This document shows, piece by piece, positions 42,778-56,622 of a stretch of DNA of 64,000 nucleotides (the stretch's first letter is position 1; each line of letters opens with the position of its first letter). The translations under genes were made by a program, and so were the position numbers. Source of the stretch: Phoronis australis. Taxonomy: Eukaryota > Animalia > Phoronida. The DNA is taken from NCBI GenBank assembly GCA_002633005.1, contig NMRA01000510.1, positions 63,438 through 127,437 of the forward strand, given 5' to 3'. Under the pieces are notes generated by a model. That model saw only the letters and a program-made list of their open reading frames with translations. It ran no database searches and was not told the DNA's origin.

Positions 42778-45700
42778 CTAAACAACTTGGTAAGGCATTT
42801 GTCGTCCTTCTAATGCAGCTATTATATTCATTGCTGTTATATCGGACATTCCCTGCCTGGTGTCTATAGTTGCACTGGCGATGTGGGGCAACACAACACA
42901 ATTCTTTAAATTCAACAATGGATGATCTGTCGGAAGTGGTTCAGGCGTGGTCACATCCAAGCCAGCCGCTCCAATTTCCCCACTTTTCAGGGCCTCGTAC
43001 AAATCGTCTTGATTTACAACACCTCCACGGCTTGAATTTACAAACACTGCAGTCTTTTTCATTTGTTTGAAAGCATTTTTGTTGAACATTTCTTTGGTGT
43101 CTGGAGTCAGAGCACAACATGATACGACGAAATCTGAATTCTTAAGAAGCTCTTCAAACGAGACAAATTCTGCATTGAGTTCTTCGGCATAAGGCTTCGC
43201 AGTCTTTCCACAGTACAAAAATTTGGCAACTTTATGTGGAGCCAGTCTCTCCACCACACCCTTACCTGAAAAATGACATTTTGGAATTTATAAAAGAGTA
43301 ATTTTTGCTCTGACTACAGAAATAATAAACATTTGCCACTTTTATTTAATCACACCAACATCAGACTAACGCTCTGCTCTGTATGTTCCAGTTTAAGACC
43401 TATTTCAGTACCATATAGAGCAAGTGCTTTGCCCCAATCCCATTTCAAACAAAACACTCCAATTTGGGTGCACAACACAAGTATGTTTGAATACATGTAA
43501 ATCTTAAACCAGCGTGGAAATATAGATTACAAACATTTTTAAGTCTGATCTGCATGCCACCTACTGGCATGCAAACCAAACTTAAAAATGTTTGCAAACA
43601 AGTATATCTGTTTAAAATTTGGAATCAAAGTGGAAGAGACATCATCAAAGCCAGTTGAAAAAGAAAGCAACGTGATTTACAGGCACCAATATTTGTCAGA
43701 AATAATGACAAAAAATCAAAATCTTCCCTGAAATATCCATCTGTGAAAGACTCAACTTCGTAAGGTAGAGAACTAATGCCAACCAATCCTGTAATTAACT
43801 TAATAATGAGTTAATTAAAAATAGTCGCAAAATTGTGACGCCAATTGGACCATGTGTGCTTCACTGCTAGAAGAGAATCAAGGCTGAATACCTATGAGGT
43901 TGTCTTACACATGGGTGGTATTGCAATGTTGTGTGGTGGGTATATTTTTCTGGCAGTTATTAATAACTGAAATATGAACATTGTGCACAACCAGGTTGTT
44001 CCATAGAATGTCAATGTTTTGTAACAAGACTTCTCAATTCTCAGTTTAGTGAGCTCAAACACATAAACTAACTTCATTTGTTTCGCACAACAATATCTTA
44101 ACTTGCCAATTAAAAATGGTTGCATCCTCAATTGTATTCTGGATTGGTTGACATTTCACAGTACACTAATTCTTCAGCTATTTAGCCGACAAGTAAAATA
44201 ACATTTTGCGAAATTTCTCCACATATGTAAGATATATGTAAGCTTATTATGAGTTTGGTTTGTACTGTGTCATGTTAAAACAACATTCATTGTAAAGTTT
44301 CCATCACCTCCAGCAAGGTAATCATCTTTAGAAAACTGGAAAATGACAGTTTCGGCAATTGTTTTTGTGGGAAATAAGTGGAGTATTACTGTAAGTCACC
44401 GATAACATCATACAAATCAAATTTTACTTGCAAAATTACAAGCTGCCTACCTATTCGTCCAAGACCAACAACTCCTACAGTGCTGTTCTGAAGACCCTGA
44501 CCACATAACCAAAGGGGTTGCCACGTTCCCCACTCACCACTTTTTACAGCAGCCACACCTGAAATATTATAGTACACCAAAAAAACGTAGAAAAAATCTT
44601 AAAAACTGGTGAAATTTGAGAGCAAAATTTTAAGCACTTTTCAGGTCTTTTATTTCTTCGTCAGAATCCTATCTGGGTTTTCACCAAAAATTTGTCAAAC
44701 CTACGTGAATCCGGTGAAATCTGTAAACACATTTCCAGGCCAATATAACATGTGGCCCACATTGGAATTTTTTATTCCATTCTCAAACACAATGTCCAAA
44801 GAACTCTAGAGATACTTTGACAAACAGGAATGACATTCACACTGGAATTAACAGTGGATACCCAATTAGTTATAACATCTTTCAACCCCATGTGATGTAC
44901 AGTAGTGATCCAGTTTCAACCATAAAACACAAAGGGAATAATTGTGGCTCTTGAATCTTGGCTAAACAGACAATACATTTAGAATAAATGTATGTGTTAA
45001 ACATCTGTAATTTTGTTACCAACCTTCCATGAGTCTGCGAGATGTAGCTAACAGTAGAGCTACAGTCAACTCAGCGGTGGCATCTGTCAGTACATCTGGG
45101 GTATAACCCACTGGGATACCTCTTCGCTTGCACTCTACCAAATCTATATGGTCATGGCCCACTGACATGGTACCAACAACCTTTAAACTGGAACCTAGTT
45201 AACAATGAAAATATGCTAATTAGTGCATTTAATACAAATTACACCATGTATCTCCAGCTTAATCCCGATCTGAGTGACCATTCTATCCATGAGATTAAAT
45301 TTCCTTTGAAAACAGAAGACTGGAGTGACTTGGTGCCACAAAATACCATAAATACCGGTAAATACTAAACCCTGTTTTCGTGATTTCAACCAATCCTCGT
45401 TCTGCACCCTACTAATGCACAATTGACGTCTCACTGGAGCACTGACAAAAACAGGATTCAACAAAAAACATAAACTGGCTCATACATAGATTTGTTGCGA
45501 TCGATGTTGTAATTGGTCAAATATTTTGCCAGACCCAGAGACTGCCAGATTTTTAAAAAATTACCATTTGACTTAAAAAGTCCTGTAAAATACTGGTAAA
45601 CAATATGTATGGAAATGATTACATGTGGACAATAGATTGGAAAAATACAGACGGTTGACAAAACTTCAATGATGCCCCTTTCAGTTTCTCTTTTACAACT

Positions 45701-47202
45701 TACCAGACTAAAAAAGTGGTGACCCTGAAAACATCGCTGCCAAAGGAAGACTTTTAAGTGTAAACATATAGCCAAGTAAATTGCATTAGTAACAGGATTG
45801 AGTTCTAACTTAATTTCAAAATGAAAGGATCAACGAACATCAAAAAGTGTCAAAGTTCGTTAATCAGGTAAGCCCGTTGAACTCTATGGTTTTCAATATA
45901 ATTTCACTCAAAACTTAGATCCAACTCCCGGGCTTAACTACAGGGAGTCCAGGGGCGGTTCCATGATTTTGAGTGGGGGAGGGGGGGGGGGTAAGNATTT
46001 GCACCCCTGATCTACCAAATGGAATGTGGGAAAATCTTGGGGGGGGCTTGGCCACCCTCTAAATCCGCCACTGGAGTCATCCCTAGAAAATAACTCGCAA
46101 GTATTTCTTTACTGTTTATTGATGACAGCAAACTACGAATGATCGTAATCTGAAAGAACAGAGACAGGGGATAAATAATAGGTCGCTGATAAGTGACCTG
46201 TGATTATAATAGGTTAACAATGCTAGATGTGCCAAGGCTACAATAAATGAAGGAATCTTACCGCTAATTAAACAATGGACTTAGAGACAACAGGAACATG
46301 GTGGCTAGGGCAAACAGCAAGCGCCATCTATATGTCATAATTCTCTAATCCCGTTGTTGCCCTGCTGTGTGTGAACTTGGAATCCTGCTTAACCTCAAGA
46401 TTAAGGCTTAAGCGGAAGTGAGTGTTGCGTGAACTAGAAACTGAATATTCTTTATAGCAAGAAGGGGAAATTTTTGTTCGCATTTGGCCTCGTGATCAAC
46501 CATTTTCTCCTTTAACGCAAATGTCGCTAAACCGGAGGAATATGTGAATAGCTAAATCCATTATTGTTTGGTGAAACTGATCGCCCGTGGTTGAAAAGGT
46601 TAAAATTGACTTTATTTTATTCAAATGTAACTTGATTTAGTGCAGTGCAAATTTTTATGAACATGAACTTGATTATTTGAGTGAACTTGCCAAGTTGCTT
46701 CTAGTATTCCAAGATCACGCAACACTCACTTGAGATTTAAGCTGGATTCCAAGTTCACGTACAGCAAAAATAGTCCCTGGCCTAACCCGGATGTTATCCG
46801 AAGAATAAAGTTTAGAATGGTTACGTAATAACTTAAACTGCATAATTTACCTGCAGCCTCTAACACGTCCTTGTCTATTTTATCAGTGAGTAAACAGAAT
46901 ATTGCATCAACTCCAGCTACACACTTTAACAATTCCTCTTCCTTTGGGGGAACATCACTATCACGCTGAATCAACTCGTACTCCATTTCTTGCAAACGTT
47001 TGATACCGGCTTCAGGTAGCGTTTTCCTAGTAACATAAATACGTCGTTTTGGCAAGGAAGACATATCTCTGACTTGCAGTCGTGTACCGTTGCGTTTGGC
47101 GAGTGGTCTTGTCTTGACAGAATATTTCTGGATATCAACAAACGAGCTAAACTTGCAGGTTTTTAGGAGGTTCCTGCTGGAAGCAAACGACCGGAAACTC
47201 AT
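42778..47202 (-). CDS. GRHPR: Glyoxylate reductase/hydroxypyruvate reductase paralog B (372 aa, N-terminal presequence)
   Basis: Exons 47202-46851, 45194-45024, 44558-44451, 43265-42778 (1119 nt); same intron positions as paralog A. Motifs [55 protein letters not shown]. Confidence 0.95.
45950..46073. mobile_element. Small hAT-like MITE with 5-bp TSD
   Basis: CAGGGGCGG...CCGCCACTG flanked by GAGTC on both sides. Related ends at ~1070-1083 and ~41816-41831. Confidence 0.7.
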
Positions 47203-47500
47203 TGTTAATGGTAAAGTGAACTTTCCTGCATTCGATTTTTGTCTGTGTAAAATGCAACATTCGCGTTGTAACGTATTTCAGTTGTTTATCTTTGGACCGA
47301 AATTGTAGGGTTTAGACATCTGACACTGTGCTATTAAAGTTTCTGGTAGCTATTGCGTTCTTCATGTGTCGTTGGTAAAATAAGTCCTGTACAAAACATA
47401 CCCATTTCCGTTCACCAGGAGTGCGCTGAACTATGTCGACTTAGGTGCCCTTGAAAGTGGTAAAGAATTACGTGGATGCAGAGTCCTAAGTACGCATAGA
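47203..47500. promoter_or_regulatory. Putative bidirectional promoter between GRHPR-B and the ASB gene
   Basis: Only ~300 bp between the GRHPR-B ATG and a strong plus-strand donor (AT|GTAAGT at 47502). Confidence 0.45.
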
Positions 47501-47681
47501 ATGTAAGTCCGCAGTTGGTTCTCGTTTTTAAATGACAATTATTGTTAAATCCCATGCTACGATTTGAAGGAAACCAAACTAGACAAATTCAACCTAAATC
47601 CCTGGCTAAGTCTTAAGAGTAAGTGCAGCTCTCGGTGTGCAGGTTTGGTGACCTCGGCCTCGGGTCAGGACTTCAGCCCAG

Positions 47682-48480
47682 TAGGCAATTACATCGCCCT
47701 GGATGCCGCAGCCATACAGGGGCGATAGTACATCCCCACAAAAAGTTACTCATTTCAAAATACAGGAAATAAAATCAAATGAAACATGCATATATGCACA
47801 TGGAGTTATAAACAACTCATACCTGAAGTCTGGAGACGATTCAGTCAAGATAATTTGAACATATCGATGGAAATCTGTCACGGTTTGCTCGAATTTCTCT
47901 TACCGGGTGCCATTTTGAGGAAGTTACGTGAAATCACCCATGTCGACGAATAAAAAGTCCAAGAGACACAAATCTTACACGCAAACGTCATGCGCTTCGC
48001 TCAGTCTCGTGCTAGCCTTTGCCTAGGCAATTACATCGCCCTTATGCTGCAGGCATACAGGGGCGATAATACATCCCCACAAAAAGTTACTCATTTCAAA
48101 ATACAGAGAGGCTACGTGTTGCCTAGCCTTTGCCTAACTCACATGACTCAGTCGACATACTTTGTGGTTATCGCGCATGTGGTGAAAAAGTTAACGGCAA
48201 TCAAAAAGTGGAGTTGGAACTCTTTGCCAAAGTCACCTTAATTCTCAAAACTAAACTTCATCGAAGATATGTATAGAAGTAGAAAGGACCAATGAAGAAA
48301 GTAAGCGCTTATTTTAAATGATAGTTGTAAGTGTGGAATGTATTTTTGACGAGGTGAAAACTCAAAATCAGTGGCCGGATTTGGCCTACCGCCCGTTTAA
48401 AATACATGTAACGAAATGCATACAGAAAGCAAATGTATTGTAGCCCCTAAATGGGCAACTGAGGGGCTACGTGTTGCCTA
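47682..48480 (+). mobile_element. Non-autonomous DNA transposon family A (TAGGCAA...TTGCCTA, 9-bp TSD) containing a nested 102-bp self-derivative
   Basis: Outer TSD TCAGCCCAG/CCAGCCCAG. Inner copy 48024-48125 has a perfect TSD GCCTTTGCC. Subterminal hairpins ATCGCCC..GGGCGAT and TAGCCCCT..AGGGGCTA. Confidence 0.85.
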
Positions 48481-48595
48481 CCAGCCCAGCAGCTCAGGCT
48501 GGCAGTGAATGCCGTAGGCATGTACAGGTGACGGTCCTGTAATATCATGGAGCTACTCAACCAATTTTCTTTTTCATTGATGTGATAAAGTATGG

Positions 48596-49357
48596 TAGCC
48601 TTGGTACAAAGCTGTACACTAAATATACAGCTGTGCGCGATGTGGGTAAAAAAGTGGTAAGATAAAATCTGACACAAAATTGGTGTCATTAAAAACTACT
48701 GTAACACTCTTCCTTGAGTAAATTAAATTTGTTAACGGTGTTGGAAAAAATGGCCTTGCACCGTTATTCTGCTGCTAAAGTTGTTGAGTTTTTGGCGCCA
48801 TGAAATATTGCGTCATCTATCGCCCAGTTTCTTCTTTTGCAGATTCTTTTATCAATCTTCTTCTCCGAGGTTGTGTAGATATCACAACAAATTATTGAAA
48901 CTGGTTTCATTTAGTTATAAGTTTTTAGAATTTTGTTACCGAAAAACCAAATTTTAAAAGAAATTTTGCTGCTACCAAGCTATCATCATTTCCCGAGAGA
49001 TCTCGCGAAAATTTAGGAAATGGCGCGTGCACATGTCATGAGCATACTGTTTTCAAAACGACGATATAACTTTTCTTTGTTAGAAAAGGCGAAGGATTAC
49101 GCAAGAAAATGACGTTTATCAGATTGTTTTCCACTTAAACGGCTGTAACGGGCAATGTGAGTGTCGTTTGATTCCCAGATTCTAAATGCACCCCGTCAGG
49201 TCTTTAGCTAGATACATGTTGATACAGGTTTCACGACAAGGTGGCAAGCAGAATTGCCCAGGCTGTTTTGGCAATTTCGGGGTCTATGGAAGAAAAACAC
49301 TCATTGGTACCTAGCTGTATTTTGACGATAGTCTTCATACAGCTAGCTGGCTGGCTA
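48596..49357 (-). mobile_element. Family B non-autonomous DNA transposon (second copy)
   Basis: Reverse-complement homology to 18505-19484; ends TAGCCTTGGTAC / GCTGGCTGGCTA; flanks AAAGTATGG/ACTATATGG (6/9). Confidence 0.75.
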
Positions 49358-49815
49358 ACTATATGGAAACAGTTAGGAATCATCATTAAGCAAAATATTG
49401 AAACTCAAAGTGTGCGTGAGACAGTTGTCTCGCCAGTCCGGTCATATAGCCTTACCCTGTAGGCCTAATGAGGGGCTCCACCTGTACCAGTTACCTCAGC
49501 AGTAGCTCTCAGGAAATCTGTTTTGGAGCAGTGTCTGACTGCAGGAATTACTTTCCACACATCTATGCATGTACTATGAAGCTGGTTGCAATGTATCTCG
49601 GTAACAACATTAATCGTGGACCAATTTTTGTGCTTCAAAATCGAAATTTGAAGGTTTTTCGCAATTAAGACAGATATGCAAAGCTGAGGCTGAGGCACAA
49701 GCAACTGATAGGAAGTGCTTGCCAGGGTAGGCAAGGACTGGGCTACAAGACCGGGAATCCAGCAAGGAAGAGACTTAAAAACCAAGACAGAGACAGAATA
49801 ATCAGAGAAGTTAGA

Positions 49816-50706
49816 TTGTCAGAGAACGAAGGAAGGTATGCCCGAGCAGTTCAGATGGGTCAGCAGGGGGCGTGGACGAAGTGGGACAAAGTCTTGCAAA
49901 GGGAAATAAAGTGGGCGGACTTGTGGAAGATGTCGCCTTTGAAAGCAAAGTTTCTCATCAGATCTGTTTATGATGTACTGCCTACTCCCAGCAACCTTGC
50001 TATTTGGGGTCTTACTGACAACCCGAGCTGTATTCAGTGTGGACGCAGATGTTCTTTAGAACACATTCTGTCATCTTGCAGCGCGTCTTTGGCATCAGGA
50101 AAGTACACCTACCGGCACAACCAGGTACTGAAAGTTTTCGCAAGGGTGTTGGTTGACGAAGTCAAGAGTAAACCAAAGTCAAGAAGCCACCGGATCGAAT
50201 TTATCAGTTTCAGAAGAAGTGGCGATGAGGCAAGTAAGAAGAAGTCACCAGCGCAGAAAGGCATCCTTCACACAGCCAACGACTGGAAATTGTGGGTTGA
50301 TCTTGCCGGTCACCAGTCATCCTTCCCACAGCACATTGTCCAGACTACCCAGCGCCCTGACTTGATTCTTTATTCGGATAGTTCCCACCAGATCATCCTG
50401 ATCGAGCTCACCATTCCGTGGGAGAGTAGGGTAGAAGAGGCACACGAGCGGAAGAACCTGAAATATACTGATCTGAGGAGTGACTGCCACGTTAACGGCT
50501 GGAGGTGTTGGAGTTTTTCCGTGGAGGTTGGTTGCCGTGGTTTTCCGGCCAGCTCGGTTACTGCTATGGCAAGGTCTCTGGGCGTCTCTGCGACAGGAAA
50601 GAAGGTTCTTCTCCGCGATGTGGCCACCGAAGCTGAACAGGCATCTTGTTGGATATGGATGAAGCACCAACAGCAATACCATCAACAACCGTCAGGCAGA
50701 GCCTGA
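49816..50706 (+). CDS. C-terminal zinc knuckle plus restriction-like endonuclease part of the retrotransposon ORF (no true start codon)
   Basis: 296-aa ORF from the track starts at TTG; the frame stays open upstream to 49669; PD..(D/E)-type RLE motifs intact. Confidence 0.75.
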   Translation: MSENEGRYARAVQMGQQGAWTKWDKVLQREIKWADLWKMSPLKAKFLIRSVYDVLPTPSNLAIWGLTDNPSCIQCGRRCSLEHILSSCSASLASGKYTYRHNQVLKVFARVLVDEVKSKPKSRSHRIEFISFRRSGDEASKKKSPAQKGILHTANDWKLWVDLAGHQSSFPQHIVQTTQRPDLILYSDSSHQIILIELTIPWESRVEEAHERKNLKYTDLRSDCHVNGWRCWSFSVEVGCRGFPASSVTAMARSLGVSATGKKVLLRDVATEAEQASCWIWMKHQQQYHQQPSGRA

Positions 50707-50796
50707 TCAACTCTGTTGTCCCGCCTACTAGAGATGGTCTTGGTTTAGGGACGAAACCATTAAGGACAGTAGGAGACCAACTGAAGATGACGGTTG
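50686..50796 (+). ncRNA. Candidate permuted/pseudoknotted hammerhead-like RNA in the retroelement 3' UTR
   Basis: Six complementary helices plus GUC (50737-50739), GAAA (50753-50756) and CUGAAGA (50781-50787); details in findings. Activity untested. Confidence 0.65.
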
Positions 50797-50864
50797 AGCA
50801 CAGTTCCATCAAATGTTTAAAGTAAGCACAAACTTTTAAACAAGGGGAGCTGTCTGTTTACAGT

Positions 50865-51372
50865 GAATCCATGACAATCTGTTGCTGTTCATTTGATTAT
50901 CTCTATCTGGGTGCCATTTTTAGGAACTTACGTGAAATAACGCCTGTTGGTGAACAAAACGTCCAAGGGACATAAATTTTACCTGATATCTTCCCATTCC
51001 AGTTTGAAAGTGTCATGCACCACGTCACGCGTCTCGCGCTAGCTTTTGCCTTACTCGCGTGTGGTTATCGCGCGCGTGGTGAAAAAGTTAACCGTATTCA
51101 AAAAAGTGGAGTTGGAATTCTTCGCCAAAGTCACCTTATTTCTCATAGCTGTGCTTAGTCGAAGATATGTGTAGAAGCAGAAAAAATCACTAAAGAATGT
51201 AAGCGCCTTTTTAAGTGTAGAATGTATTTTTGACGTGGTGAAAGCACTTAATTATTCAGTGAGTGGAATTCGCCTTCCTCCTGTTTAAAATACACAGGAT
51301 GAAATTAGTGCTGAAAGCAATGATAAGTATTGTAGCCCCTAACCAGCCAACCGAGGGACTACGTGTTGCCTA
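50865..51372 (+). mobile_element. Family A copy lacking its left end
   Basis: Aligns with 47865-48480, ends CTACGTGTTGCCTA, and shows the empty site (GCTTTTGCC, 51042-51050) for the nested mini-element. Confidence 0.75.
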
Positions 51373-52088
51373 AGACTGCTTGAGTAGTCGGGCTCGACTA
51401 AAGACAGCCACATAGATTTTGTTTATATCACACTGGCAGAAAACTGCAAGGTGACACACATGCCCTCTCAAGTTGACAAATGAATCATTTCACAGCAAAA
51501 CAAGCAGTCATGAATGATGCAAACAATACTTCCCCTGGTGTAACCCCAAGGTTCCATAATTTTTATATACTAAAACTATTTTGAATCTGAAAGTTGAATT
51601 ACCTTTCACAGCAATGAAAATGTCATGTTAATCAGACACATAAATATTCTCTTAGTACTCGAATAGTATGTAACCACTTGCTGTATTGGAAGTAATACCG
51701 GGGTATATTAGCAGAGTTGGGAGACCTGGGTGAACTTTTCGTTTTCCTGTAGCTTTATATTAGGATTGCTGGAGCAAAATTTGTCAGAACGTTTCAATTG
51801 CTCAGTAGCAGCAGTAAGTAGGAATATATTTACCTGGGCAAATCTACAGTCAAGCTGACTGGTGACTAACTCAAAGTGTTCTTCATAGTCTTTAAAACCC
51901 TAGTTGGAATAGCTTCGCATGGCTCAATGACTATTGTATCGTCACTGTAGATTGGCTCAATATCAGATGTAGCTGTTACTAAACTGACTTACTGGAACAA
52001 TTAAGGAGGCAGTGTGATGGCTGATAAAAGATTTTAATTAATAAGATACTCAGTGAAAAGGTTTCAAAACTGAACATCCCTGGCCTCT

Positions 52089-52320
52089 CAGGGCTCGACG
52101 CTATTCAAATCACCAGGTCGCATTTTGCGACCCAGCCAAAATCCCTGGTTGCATTTTCAAAATCCAGCTCGCATTCATAAATGCCAGGTCGCAAAATTTT
52201 CCCGCCATTTTTACGCGTCAAAATTGATTTTTAGATCATTGAGAAAATGTTTAGATTATGTTCTTACCTGCAGCGTTAAATACTCAATATTCCAGGTCGC
52301 AAAATTGAGTTCGTTCATGC
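52089..52320 (+). mobile_element. hAT-like element left end
   Basis: Starts CAGGGCTCGAC with repeated subterminal CCAGGTCGCA motifs; right end not found. Confidence 0.45.
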
Positions 52321-53220
52321 AGGTACGGCCAGTGAGATAAATATAACTAGATATATATAGCTCATTGGGTACGGCGTTACTGTTCTTCACGACCGCCATT
52401 GAAAGGCTCTAGAGCGCAAGGCAAGTTGCGGACGTGAAAGTTGAATCCGTGCTCTCTGACACGTGCATTCGAGTAGCTATGTTTGCGATGTGAAAAGGGA
52501 GAAAATACCCGTTGAAAAAGTATCCTGGATGTTGCTAGGTCTGACCTGCTACTGGCTGTCATCAAAGTCGTTAAAGATTTAAAGTAACTCAGAGTGCAAA
52601 TTCCTTCCACTTTTTGTTCGCAGCCCAAATTTTGCAACTTAACTTGACGTTTGAAAGACATCTGTTGAAAAAAATCTGTGATACGATGCCCTAACCTATT
52701 GACGTATTTGGATGCGCGGGAACAATTCAGTGCAGTTCACAGCAAAAATGTGGTACTTATGCGGTTTACGTACTCAACAATTAGTTTTCCATGAATTGAA
52801 TAGCCTCAAAATAATTCCCGACTCGGTTCGGGTTTCCATCGGGTAATTCGAGTTTTGCTCCTCAATACCTTCCAAGTACGGGAAAATAGGTCAGTCACAA
52901 AACGACACGCCTGTCACTAGTGTTAACATTCTTTCAGAGGTACTATGAAACAAAGCCACGCTGCTTTGATGGCTGCATGAAACTAATAAACTGTGGCATG
53001 CAAACTCAATTCATGCATGAGACTGGCTTGAAGCAATGTAACTGTCAAGTCTTCCCAGGCAAAAATCATTTCTCTGAGTATGGAACAAGATTAGATTGAT
53101 TTTATATATTAGATAAGAGACAAACACGACAGTTTACAGAAGGCTCAGGTTTATTGCCAGTTTAGGTTTTAAAGATGTTTTATGATATATAATTTTAATA
53201 ACCCGTCTTTATTTTTGTAG

Positions 53221-54887
53221 GTCATTTCTTTTAACGTGTGTTGAAGAAAGTGACACCGAAGGTTTGAAGAGTTGGTTTGAAAGGCACAGTTCATGCATAG
53301 ACAACAATGATTATGGCAATGCACTTCTCTTTGCTGCTGAAAACAACAGAGTGGATTGCTTGTCTATATTACTTCAACACAGTAACCCTGCCATGTGCAG
53401 CGATGTGAGAAGAGTGGCTTTGAAACGTGCCCTCCTAAAGGGCTTCAAAGATGCAGCACGGCTGTTGATTATGACATGCAAATGCCAGAAAAATGATGGG
53501 TTGATGTGTGCCAACAGTACCCTACCACTGGCTGTTAAAATGGGAATGACAGATGTTGTTAACGAGTTAATTCAGGCAGGTATGCACAACATGTAAGGTA
53601 AATAATTATTTAAAATATTCACCCTCTCTCTTCTAAATGCCCAACGGAGTGTAATTTTGATAATTACCAAATATTATGCTATATTTTAGTAAAGGATAAC
53701 ATTAAAAATTTAATTACATTTAGCTCCTAACTTTACACTGATCCCTATAGGCCGTGAATCATTTGGATCTAATTTGGCACTTGATCTACAGTCAGTTAAA
53801 TCTTCGAAATGAACTCAATTTCTTGATTGCTGTTTTAGGTGCAGAGCCAAAAACTGATCAACTTATAGAAGGAAGACCTTGCCTGTATGTTGCAGTGAGC
53901 CAAGGAAACACAGAAATGGTATCATTTCTTCTCAAGGCAGGGTGCAAGCCTTGTTGGGCTGAACCATCTGAACTGGTCGAAGCTTCTAGCAATAATTACT
54001 TAGAAATTATGAAGCTCTTGCTGGATGCTGGAACAGCAAAACACAGCCAACATGAGGCACTGCACGTAGCTTGTAAGAGGAATAATGTGGAAGCCGTAAA
54101 GGTTCTCCTCAATCACGGACTCCATGTGAATACTCCAGTGTATGGTTTGTATCCACTTCATATTGCTGCAAGTCAAGCATCTGTTTCACTGGTATCAACA
54201 TTTCTGAAGTATGGTGCTGATGTCAATCAACTCGATATGCATGTACGACCTGCGCTGTATCACTGCTGTGTGAATTGTGGGGTGAAGTCTAATGTGCTTC
54301 AGATTACAAAAATTTTGCTCAATGCTGGTGCTAATCCCAATTTAGGCGATCCTACTCCACTGTTTCTGGCCTGCTTAAAAAAAGATTTCCAACTCGTGAA
54401 ATTGTTGGTGAATAGTGGAGCCTGTGCTTCAGTGCCATCTTACCGAGATCTCGGTCTCACACCCTTGACACTATCAATACTTAAAGGGTTAAAAGACATC
54501 ACCAGGCTGTTGATATGCACTTGTTGTGTCCAGGATTTTGATATCAGATTCCTGCACCATTCACCGCCAAAACTGTCCATTTATCCAATGCCATATGTGG
54601 GAATCGGTCACCATAGCTTTAAGACTTTGAAAGTACTAGTAGCAAGCGGTGGCCGCCTGGTGAACAGAAAGTTCCTTCCCCAGCTCATGCTGGAATTTCA
54701 GAAGTATCCAGAGTTAGTAAATTGGTTAAGCGAAGAAATGCACACCCCCCAGTCTCTCCAGCTTCTCTGCAGACGTACGATCAATCGCAGCCTTGGGCAT
54801 GGAGGTGTTCGCAAGGTGACCAGACTGAACTTGCCAAAACTTCTCCAAGAGTACCTGCAGTTTTCGGATTTGAGCGACATTCACTAG
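53221..54887 (+). CDS. Ankyrin repeat and SOCS box protein (ASB-like E3 substrate adaptor), ~469 aa
   Basis: Exons 53221-53579 and 53839-54887. Multiple ankyrin repeats (YPLHIAA, TPLFLAC, GADVN, GANPN) and a C-terminal SOCS box PQSLQLLCRRTI...LNLPKLLQEYL. Start codon probably split AT|G by an intron from 47502. Confidence 0.9.
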
Positions 54888-56622
54888 GGAACTACTAGTG
54901 CTAATTATCTTGCTGATGATATTGAAGTTAGTGGCTTGTTAAGACAATGGATTAAAAGAAACATTGCTATAAACATTTGGCTGTTACAGGATTGCAATAA
55001 TATATTAAGAAACTGGTATGGCCAAAATAAATGTGTTGATTCTCATCATGTGCTAATATCTATTCTTGTAATCTATCAGAGTCTATTCTCGTCTTGTTTC
55101 TTGTATTTCAGTTGTTATTGGTCATTAAATTGGAAAATCTACATGTTTAATCTAAGTATTTCATTGCCTTTGGTGCTTTTTAGTTGTGTAACTGATAATT
55201 GGAAGAGTGAACTCCAGTGGCAACATTTGTGGTTATTTACTTGTACCCTGAAGTCTAGTATCATGTGACAGAATAATCTGGTTGAGCATTCTGTTGTAAA
55301 CATGCTGGGATGGCATTTCTAGGCAGCTCAAGTGTTCATGCAAACTCTCCACACCTGGTTTGTATGAGTAATAATATAATGGAGATATAAGGTAATGCAA
55401 TTTATTGGTAGACAGTGATAATACTCAGTGATCACAGTGATCACAACGTTCAGCGTCATCTATAATTTACTCCTGTGACTTTAGATAAATATTTAATGCA
55501 GTAAGATTTCACTTTTTTCATACCATTGTCATTGTAGTGCGGGATGTTAAAGTTATGCTAGCAAATAAGTTTTAACACCACAAAATGCCCACGAATGAAA
55601 GGATTTGGATTTTGTCTTTGTCAACTCAACCCCTTTTGCTGAGAATGGATTGAAATTGGGTCAAGTGAAAGTTGCTTTCATGCTTTCACAATGATACAGG
55701 GTTGTTACTTGTAGGTGGAATGTTTGACACTGAGCTGCGATATTACAACTTGTCAGAAAAGAAATGTGTAAATAAAAACGCTTGTTTTGGCCATTAGGTA
55801 TGAAGCCTGCCTGTGGTGGTCTTGTACATGTTTCCATGTCTAAATGCTTCACCCTCGTGCTAATCATCAGTGCCAACATGTCTGTGCTTGTGAACATTGC
55901 AAAGAACGTAAAAATCTAATGTGCCATATTTGGTCTTCATTATATTTTGATCACATTTACATACATACAGTGTCAAATATACATGTGAACTGCTTTTGGT
56001 TACCTATTTTCTTAATATAAGAGAAAATGTTATCATTGCTTTTGATTTTTGCTTTTATGACACTTTCAAACATAAGCAGAACTGAATTGACAGCATATTT
56101 TAAACACTCGTCATTAGAGCATTATTGTCTAGCATTATTACTTATTGTTAACTCGCAAGGACAGCTTTATGTTTCCAAACATATCTTGTTCAATGGAACA
56201 AAAACTTGGCAAGCATTTATACAAAAACGTCAAAACTTTTTTGTAAAATTTCCACCAGCTTCAACTCTTGGCAGAAGACTAGGCCACACACATGTAGGTA
56301 GGCCACACACGTGTAGGTAGAGCAATTGAGAAAGTCCCAACTACAGTTCTTTCATCTCCTGAACCTAATCTCTAGTTGCTCTGTAAAGTTGTTCAAACAA
56401 ACCCTGCACAAAAGCCCTTAACTAAGTACAATATTCATGTCTAATTAGACACTACAAGAAAAACACCAGTATTTACAACCAATGAAATGACTTATATTAG
56501 TTCTCGGAATACTTAGCTGGCCTCAAAATCAAAAGGAAAACAGACACTCATTTATCACAAAAATCCAAATCGTACATTTCCAACTGCTCGGTGATCAACT
56601 TATCTCGAGCTTTCAGATTGTT

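Follow-up and report, generated by a model that had tools for sequence, protein, structure and literature searches.

Hammerhead ribozymes of type SGC (HRIMA-1 and its variants; Eckert et al., 2023, PMC10085705) share with the motif reported here the block order S, G, C, a short linker between stems I and II, a helix at the outer ends of these two stems and a full catalytic core. In the available parts of that paper cleavage is given at 0.007-0.19 per minute, cleavage depends on the helix that joins stems I and II, and this helix can follow stem III with no linker despite the apparent distance in the crystal structure; by our reading of the published primers the cleaving ribozyme SGC-1 would be an example of this zero-linker arrangement. 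The search pattern used there permits a single U between A9 and G10.1, and the authors state as a rule that CUGAnGA runs straight into stem II, whereas in our motif the stem II strand lies upstream of the S block. Two further differences are that the link between A9 and G10.1 here consists of a helix (helix a) and a hairpin, and that both strands of the helix corresponding to the one joining stems I and II (helix c) reach stem III through a kink-turn pattern; a term search of the accessible supplement of Eckert et al. found neither 'kink' nor 'k-turn'. The sources of type SGC given there are metatranscriptomes, whereas this motif was found in animal retrotransposon DNA.

The hammerheads of Penelope elements and non-LTR retrozymes resemble our motif in other respects. 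According to the available portions of the papers describing them (PMC4209133, PMC7229834, PMC11167929), there is one of them in each unit of head-to-tail or partial tandem arrays for which a circular template was proposed, reverse transcription starts internally, a nucleotide is tolerated between positions 9 and 10.1, and a U3-A8 variant exists. They differ in being type I, often minimal and dimeric, and also in their proteins, as Penelope proteins have a GIY-YIG nuclease and retrozymes encode none, whereas the element described here has an R2-like reverse transcriptase and a restriction-like nuclease. The same reports propose a circular template for Penelope elements, for which internal initiation was shown; for retrozymes circular RNA was shown and a host ligase is apparently relied on, self-ligation of animal retrozymes being only 1-3% compared to 30-80% with RtcB. 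The HDV-like ribozymes of R2 and L1Tc (PMC6765202) are likewise, in the text available, self-cleaving RNAs of non-LTR elements freed from a longer transcript, but they are of another class, lie at the 5′ end and release their product, whereas our motif lies at the 3′ end, copies span the predicted cut and the products would be bridged. Hammerhead variants with additional helices are mentioned in the accessible text of a 2026 paper, although the study cited for them (Forgia 2023) shows in its accessible part only length variants, and a term search of the available text of a 2026 preprint on animal retrozymes found no mention of Hero. HERO is a clade of elements with a restriction-like endonuclease (RLE; PMC4640811).

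The window analysed here is a stretch of 64,000 nt from contig NMRA01000510.1 of the phoronid Phoronis australis, and it contains a 5′-truncated copy of a retrotransposon (Table 1). Its boundaries were evident from same-species reads and contigs, loose ends of which fell before 49688 and behind 49680, placing the truncation at approximately 49681-49688, and behind 50826 (11, 11 and 5 reads in three RNA runs, together with DNA contigs), placing the 3′ end at 50826. The copy has no poly(A) tail, and CA or GCA (2-3 nt) was likely duplicated at its insertion site. Its open frame aligns only with the last ∼330 residues of full-length relatives, so that the CCHC finger and nuclease motif of the C-terminal part are kept while the reverse transcriptase is absent; the match of this frame to zf-RVT was weak (E 3e-5, under the curated cut-off). 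Five full-length relatives (1123-1180 aa) have the plan of RLE-type non-LTR elements, a single ORF with reverse transcriptase, CCHC finger and PD..D/E..K nuclease, and RVT_1 was found in all five; the solved structures closest to their proteins are R2 proteins, and the Penelope-like hallmarks (telomerase-like reverse transcriptase, GIY-YIG nuclease) are absent from the element's relatives. The named relatives of the window frame among the 120 matches listed, from a total of 262, were proteins from fish, molluscs and lancelets that are either of reverse transcriptase type or uncharacterised, with identities of 38-48% among the matches listed. It is on these relatives and on the preliminary description of the locus that we presume the label Hero to apply. 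A single ORF with reverse transcriptase and RLE is also found in the fish elements Zebulon and HERO, and Zebulon, as Bouneau and colleagues are said to have described in 2003, forms partial tandem copies. No description of a ribozyme or of a circular template for Zebulon or HERO elements was found in the literature searched, nor of any ribozyme for Hero elements, and the term 'type-SGC' occurred there in one paper only.

No relative of the element was found among the viral contigs searched. Prokaryote genomes contained four loci (L080-L083), all on short contigs and likely animal DNA inside prokaryote assemblies; these were left out of the motif counts, and the core motif was visible in L082. 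In the surroundings of the window copy there is an exon of a host gene for a D-2-hydroxyacid dehydrogenase (46726-47277, minus strand) and a host gene for an ankyrin-repeat SOCS-box protein (53751-54887, plus strand). A different interspersed repeat is present in two copies (47860-48480 and 50865-51375; 72-89% alike in ungapped blocks), contains a palindromic 31-nt block and, in its second copy, begins ∼40 nt past the end of the element.

The preliminary description had proposed a hammerhead core surrounded by six helices (a to e and a hairpin), and all of these were found by reading the sequence directly. The hairpin with the ORF stop codon in its loop was confirmed but its extent was corrected, as one more pair, G50695.U50717, can form, with the result that helix a, the hairpin and G10.1 abut without a linker. 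The folding energy was unremarkable (z = -1.46), as calculated by a program that cannot form pseudoknots. The commonest change within the motif in same-species copies, G50696A, converts a G.U pair to A-U. As had been anticipated for a motif that standard searches would miss, Rfam gave no ribozyme match in positions 44000-56000 of the window or in 14 loci.

Table 1. Features of the retrotransposon copy and of its 3′ motif (positions in the window).
Feature	Position	Strand	Basis or remark
Hero-like RLE non-LTR retrotransposon copy, 5′-truncated	49681..50826	+	Read ends; alignment of relatives
Open frame, 345 aa, stop to stop	49669..50706	+	CCHC zinc finger and restriction-like endonuclease (PD..D..E..K) at the C terminus; lacks the RT part
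Helix a, 5′ strand	50686..50694	+	Pairs with 50788-96
Hairpin, 7 bp, ORF stop TGA (50704-06) in loop	50695..50717	+	Strands 50696-701/50711-16 plus G50695.U50717
Helix b = stem II, 5′ strand, starting at G10.1	50718..50722	+	Pairs with 50748-52; covariation
Helix c, 5′ strand (counterpart of the type SGC stem I-II 'I' helix)	50724..50729	+	Pairs with 50768-73; covariation
Predicted kink-turn, non-bulged strand (3n, G2n, A1n)	50730..50732	+	Published kink-turn definition
Stem III, 5′ strand (helix d, 50733-38), U16.1, C17	50733..50739	+	Predicted cut between 50739/50740; GUC 50737-39
Stem I, 5′ strand (helix e)	50740..50746	+	Pairs with 50774-80; covariation
Stem II, 3′ strand; G12-A13-A14-A15.1; stem III, 3′ strand	50748..50761	+	GAAA 50753-56; helix d 3′ strand 50756-61
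Predicted kink-turn, bulged strand (3-nt bulge, G1b, A2b, C3b)	50762..50767	+	Sequence pattern
Helix c, 3′ strand, then immediately stem I, 3′ strand	50768..50780	+	Read directly; covariation
CUGANGA core strand (C3-A9; CUGAAGA 50781-87), then helix a, 3′ strand	50781..50796	+	Core alignment
3′ tail as far as the abrupt end of inserted copies, where reverse transcription is inferred to start	50797..50826	+	Copy and read ends

A metagenome scan returned 369 relatives, from which 79 loci were retained. A descriptor built from helices and spacings with no core letters, its spacings chosen from the window copy and relatives, matched 45 of 80 segments, as against 1/69 reverse complements and 2/207 shuffles; CUGANGA, UH and G10.1 were present in 41 of the 45 (with GAAA in 40 and AAAA in one). 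An alignment of 33 sequences (A2), obtained from 41 by removal of eight close relatives (L018, L032, L043, L052, L053, L061, L064 and L070), had 89.4% of its cells paired, compared to 60.1% after shuffling and 31-42% when slid, and showed compensatory change at 38/40 pairs. The top 22 of its 6361 column pairs by covariation were all proposed pairs; the outer three pairs of helix e were weak (42.7% paired), stem I being mostly 4-7 bp across copies. A second set, blind to structure, was chosen by GAAA and CUGANGA alone (62/80; nine were too short and nine gave no match), and after removal of 90%-alike sequences it comprised 48 sequences with a mean identity of 50%. Here again each of the 22 strongest covarying column pairs, of 6375, was one of the proposed pairs. 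Against the maximum from each of 100 simulations on a tree, 13 pairs scored above the 95th percentile, all of them proposed and together representing all six helices (a rough null of our own, not R-scape).

A covariance model gave 75 matches, every one on the element's strand and one of them in the window, and placed the motif in 70 of the 79 loci. Conservation and covariation across related elements, as expected in the preliminary description, were thus obtained, and an origin of the fold by chance is ruled out by the descriptor controls, the compensatory changes and the structure-blind covariation. We consider it virtually certain that the RNA fold is real, and by these comparisons of sequence the motif is carried, deeply conserved, in the tail of a widespread animal retrotransposon. 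The nine loci with no match comprised four that end too early, one (L009) that breaks off inside the motif, and four (L045, L050, L071 and L076) that lack it. T-rich tails with no visible motif were seen in L045, L076 and L083, which are possibly another subgroup. The tandem lineage of L050 (2660-2900) and L071 (2750-2990) has a 5′ hairpin array and no hammerhead motif in its tail; the idea that another ribozyme class takes its place there found no support, as the L050 tail had no Rfam ribozyme match and z = -1.1.

Hammerheads obey the NUH rule at the cleavage site, and G8 and G12 have roles in catalysis. In the 71 aligned rows the core letters were C3 in 65, U4 in 70, G5 in 70, A6 in 71, G8 in 67 and A9 in 71, with position 7 free, and the GAAA strand had G12 in 68 and A13 and A14 in 71 each; the G10.1-C11.1 position in alignment A2 was G-C in 32/33 and G.U in one. 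The cut site predicted after C50739 is supported, and UH is found there: U16.1 was present in 71/71 rows, and position 17 was C in 28, U in 26, A in 16 and a gap in one, G never occurring (0/70, and also 0/54 non-redundant copies). Across 75 sequences the C3-G8 pair was CG in 65, UA in 3, UG in 2 and CU in 1, with 4 gaps, and the joint change to U3-A8 occurred in L025, L068 and L039 (two distinct sequences from one lineage); U3-A8 covariation has been reported in Penelope hammerheads, in the text available of PMC4209133, PMC7229834 and PMC11167929. The near-invariance of G12, G8, G5 and A6 while the letters of the helices turn over, the absence of G from position 17 and the covariation of C3-G8 match the constraints of catalysis.

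With respect to the defining features of a hammerhead, CUGANGA lies next to stem I, G10.1-C11.1 is followed by GAAA and stem III, UH has an H that is not G, and the C3-G8 pair is present. The exception is that A9 does not lead to stem II within 1-2 nt (block C of Eckert et al.) but enters helix a, with G10.1 following the hairpin. The variant thus lacks one defining feature of all described hammerheads, and this opened link between A9 and G10.1, which no tested hammerhead is known to have, could slow or stop catalysis; function is likely, and we judge that the ribozyme is very probably active. No pile-up of RNA read ends was seen at 50739/40 in about a fifth of each of three same-species runs (∼20-50 deep, both strands, fragmented), a sample of little power for this purpose, and no indel scars were found at the cut in 36 close pairs, except for an 11-nt deletion between short repeats in L074. 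Contigs that begin close to the cut (one base past it in L001, and one at 50739) were not taken as cleavage ends, as contig ends follow assembly branch points.

The strand order noted in the preliminary description, pseudoknotted and outside types I-III, was confirmed: the blocks run S, G, C with crossing helices, and the nested junction of types I, II and III (CGS, GSC, SCG) is absent. Its assignment of helices d, e and b to stems III, I and II is also supported. The S-G-C order and the helix linking stems I and II, both as in type SGC, are present, helix c lying after the 5′ strand of stem II and before the 3′ strand of stem I, but the stem II strand that in type SGC directly follows CUGAnGA at the 3′ end is not there; the motif would therefore work like type SGC and yet is not to be filed as one. 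The insertion of helix a and the hairpin between A9 and G10.1 is likewise upheld, the three links from A9 to helix a, to the hairpin and to G10.1 all being zero in 39/54 non-redundant copies (6 had longer links, and in 9 the links could not be resolved). From this we infer that helix a, the hairpin, stem II and the G12.A9/A13.G8 pairs would make a perfect four-way junction between A9 and G10.1. In one respect the preliminary description is partly outdated, as the order UH, GAAA, CUGANGA has been published as type SGC (PMC10085705, available text); the new features are the opening of the core, its closure by a predicted kink-turn and the element that carries it. No description of the motif was found in the literature searched, a body that takes in few of the subscription journals and little of Repbase Reports.

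Kink-turns (McPhee et al., 2014, PMC4382518, available text) contain, like the loop between helices c and d, a bulge of 3 nt and then a G.A and an A.G pair, and most copies here have 3n = G or 3b = C; the kink-turn of our motif, predicted from its sequence pattern, differs in that it would close the arm of a ribozyme. The 3-nt bulge with GA/GA was found in 40/54 copies, including that of the window, while 14/54 did not fit; GA/GA with other bulge lengths was found in at most 1/54 each at 1, 2, 4, 5 and 6 nt and in 12 at 0 nt. For 31 of the 40 the sequence rule predicts from the 3b.3n pair, most often A.G, that folding needs only Mg2+. The spacing across this arm was tight, that between G10.1 and U16.1 being 19-20 nt in 49/54 copies and the other 27-29 nt in 50/54, whereas the length of the linker between stems I and II was variable; stem III was mostly 5-7 bp. 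Because related copies are not independent, binomial significance for such counts would be overstated. The divergent copies L035 (1777-1888) and L075 (570-677) have no kink-turn pattern, and in these a longer helix c (11 bp) joins stem III across a one-sided bulge.

To the preliminary description the fold had looked sterically impossible in a monomer, so that a dimer or a switch with melting of helix c might be needed. This objection is weakened by the kink-turn pattern, by the covariation of helix c and by the fact that type SGC ribozymes with the same helix cleave, and a monomer is favoured because a sharp kink-turn bend would bring helix c back to the upper ends of both stem I and stem II. 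The fold would thus likely work as a single molecule. In this arrangement only stem I falls inside the 3′ cut product, whereas helices a, II, c and III (26 bp in the window copy) bridge both products; in types I-III and SGC a single stem bridges the cut.

Internal repetition at 3.64-3.84 kb, head-to-tail, was found in 13 loci, some of these being collapsed assembly loops. Among 63 motif copies with at least 150 nt downstream, 22 run into a conserved 5′ UTR, although 5 of the 22 supplied the reference UTRs, and the junction between units was identical in L010 and L018. Solo copies that have a tandem relative all (8/8) stop 4-8 nt ahead of the first UTR hairpin and carry no poly(A). The 5′ boundaries of longer-than-unit copies, of which six were inspected, lie in the ORF (L021, L024, L058 and L068), in helix a (L040) and in the tail (L039), none at the cut, and the upstream partial units are intact through it. 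Between the predicted cut and the structured 5′ UTR of the unit that follows lie ∼90 nt, and inserted copies end ∼90 nt downstream of the cut, a result that does not agree with the earlier suggestion of 3′-end processing at this site. The ends of the solo copies, and boundaries of longer-than-unit copies lying away from the cut, suggest that the template likely extends past the start site, with no break at the cut.

The 5′ UTR (L001:95-340, L005:155-400, L007:1880-2130, L017:118-360 and 17 more) contains 4-5 hairpins spaced by ∼22 nt, whose loops resemble GAA(N)AGA and whose spacers are GAC, followed by a three-way junction, the loop of which may, as judged by eye, pair with a conserved downstream GCUA (L069 alters both sides), and by a GC hairpin ahead of the likely start codon. 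These structures had no Rfam match, and are possibly protein-binding and translation-start elements. The two head-to-tail units in L007 (1-5600) are only 70% alike, pointing to a switch of template between subfamilies or to insertion at the end of another unit.

A circular template would explain both the extension beyond the start site and the continuity across the cut, as proposed for Penelope elements. In the mechanism we propose, the kink-turn would fold helix c back, so that stems I and II are tied to each other within a single molecule; transcripts that read through tandem copies would be cut once per unit; the four helices that bridge the products would allow the two ends of a unit to pair again, after which either the ribozyme itself or a host ligase, for example RtcB, would join them; and the element's protein would bind the hairpin array, start just upstream of it and go round, giving truncated, full and longer-than-unit inserts. 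That the RNA adopts a monomeric hammerhead-core fold, cuts after C50739 and is rejoined to circles copied from an internal start is, taken as a whole, a proposition that we rate slightly better than even, and if the ribozyme is active a circular template seems to us reasonably probable. Much more tentative, and on balance doubtful, is the fuller proposal that this is a hammerhead topology beyond the six proposed permutations, its core opened at A9/G10.1 by a four-way junction and closed by a kink-turn such that the products are retained after cutting, that a cut-and-rejoin lock circularises unit-length RNA with no protein ligase, and that an R2-like reverse transcriptase integrates it by internal priming. 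Exchanging 26 bp of pairing for closure of a circle may be slow, and the presence of at least one tandem lineage (L050/L071) lacking the motif counts against the circular reading.

As tandem DNA and circular RNA yield the same junction, the genomic pattern would also be explained by uncut read-through transcripts. An active ribozyme might then set the 5′ end of the messenger, comparable to the HDV-like ribozyme of R2, or limit read-through, with insertion proceeding from uncut tandem RNA and no circle. This account uses the same core and tandem evidence, agrees with the distance of ∼90 nt from the cut to the next unit's 5′ UTR, and has precedents in the release of R2 and L1Tc from co-transcripts and in uncut oligomers as Penelope templates (PMC6765202, available text). 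However, the translated RNA would differ from the copied RNA, and the bridging of the cut products by four helices would be unexplained, so that we think it unlikely. Less likely still is that the RNA is cut and never rejoined, the helices holding the nick closed while the reverse transcriptase jumps across it; the 26 bp that bridge the products would suit such a process, and template jumping by the R2 reverse transcriptase was reportedly described by Bibillo and Eickbush in 2002, but jumps should add or lose bases and none were found at the cut in the 36 close pairs or in reads. A catalytically silent scaffold bound by the element's protein, like the structured UTRs of R2, would agree with the absence of RNA read ends at the cut, with the fact that every copy runs through the site and with the opening of the core at A9/G10.1; the near-invariant core guanines and A6, the restriction of position 17 to C, U or A and the covariation of C3-G8 argue against it, and we hold it to be improbable. 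Finally, a core formed only as an RNA dimer or once helix c melts is the least probable of these, for although Penelope elements and retrozymes have dimeric hammerheads, tandem transcripts hold two copies and covariation is blind to whether pairs form within or between molecules, known dimers rescue a stem III of 1-2 bp and not one of mostly 5-7 bp, the kink-turn pattern and fixed spacing point to a monomer, and a type SGC ribozyme lost cleavage when the equivalent of helix c was broken and regained it on repair (PMC10085705, available text).

If the proposed cleavage and circularisation are correct, the rule that CUGAnGA runs straight into stem II, on which the published permutation searches rest, would be broken, and a large animal ribozyme family would have been missed as a consequence. 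Hammerheads would be added to the RLE-type LINEs, for which only HDV-like ribozymes were found described in the literature searched. RNA circularisation could also make use of a hammerhead that has a single exit helix and keeps its products bridged, and circular templates with internal priming would be indicated for a relative of R2, a group now used for gene insertion.
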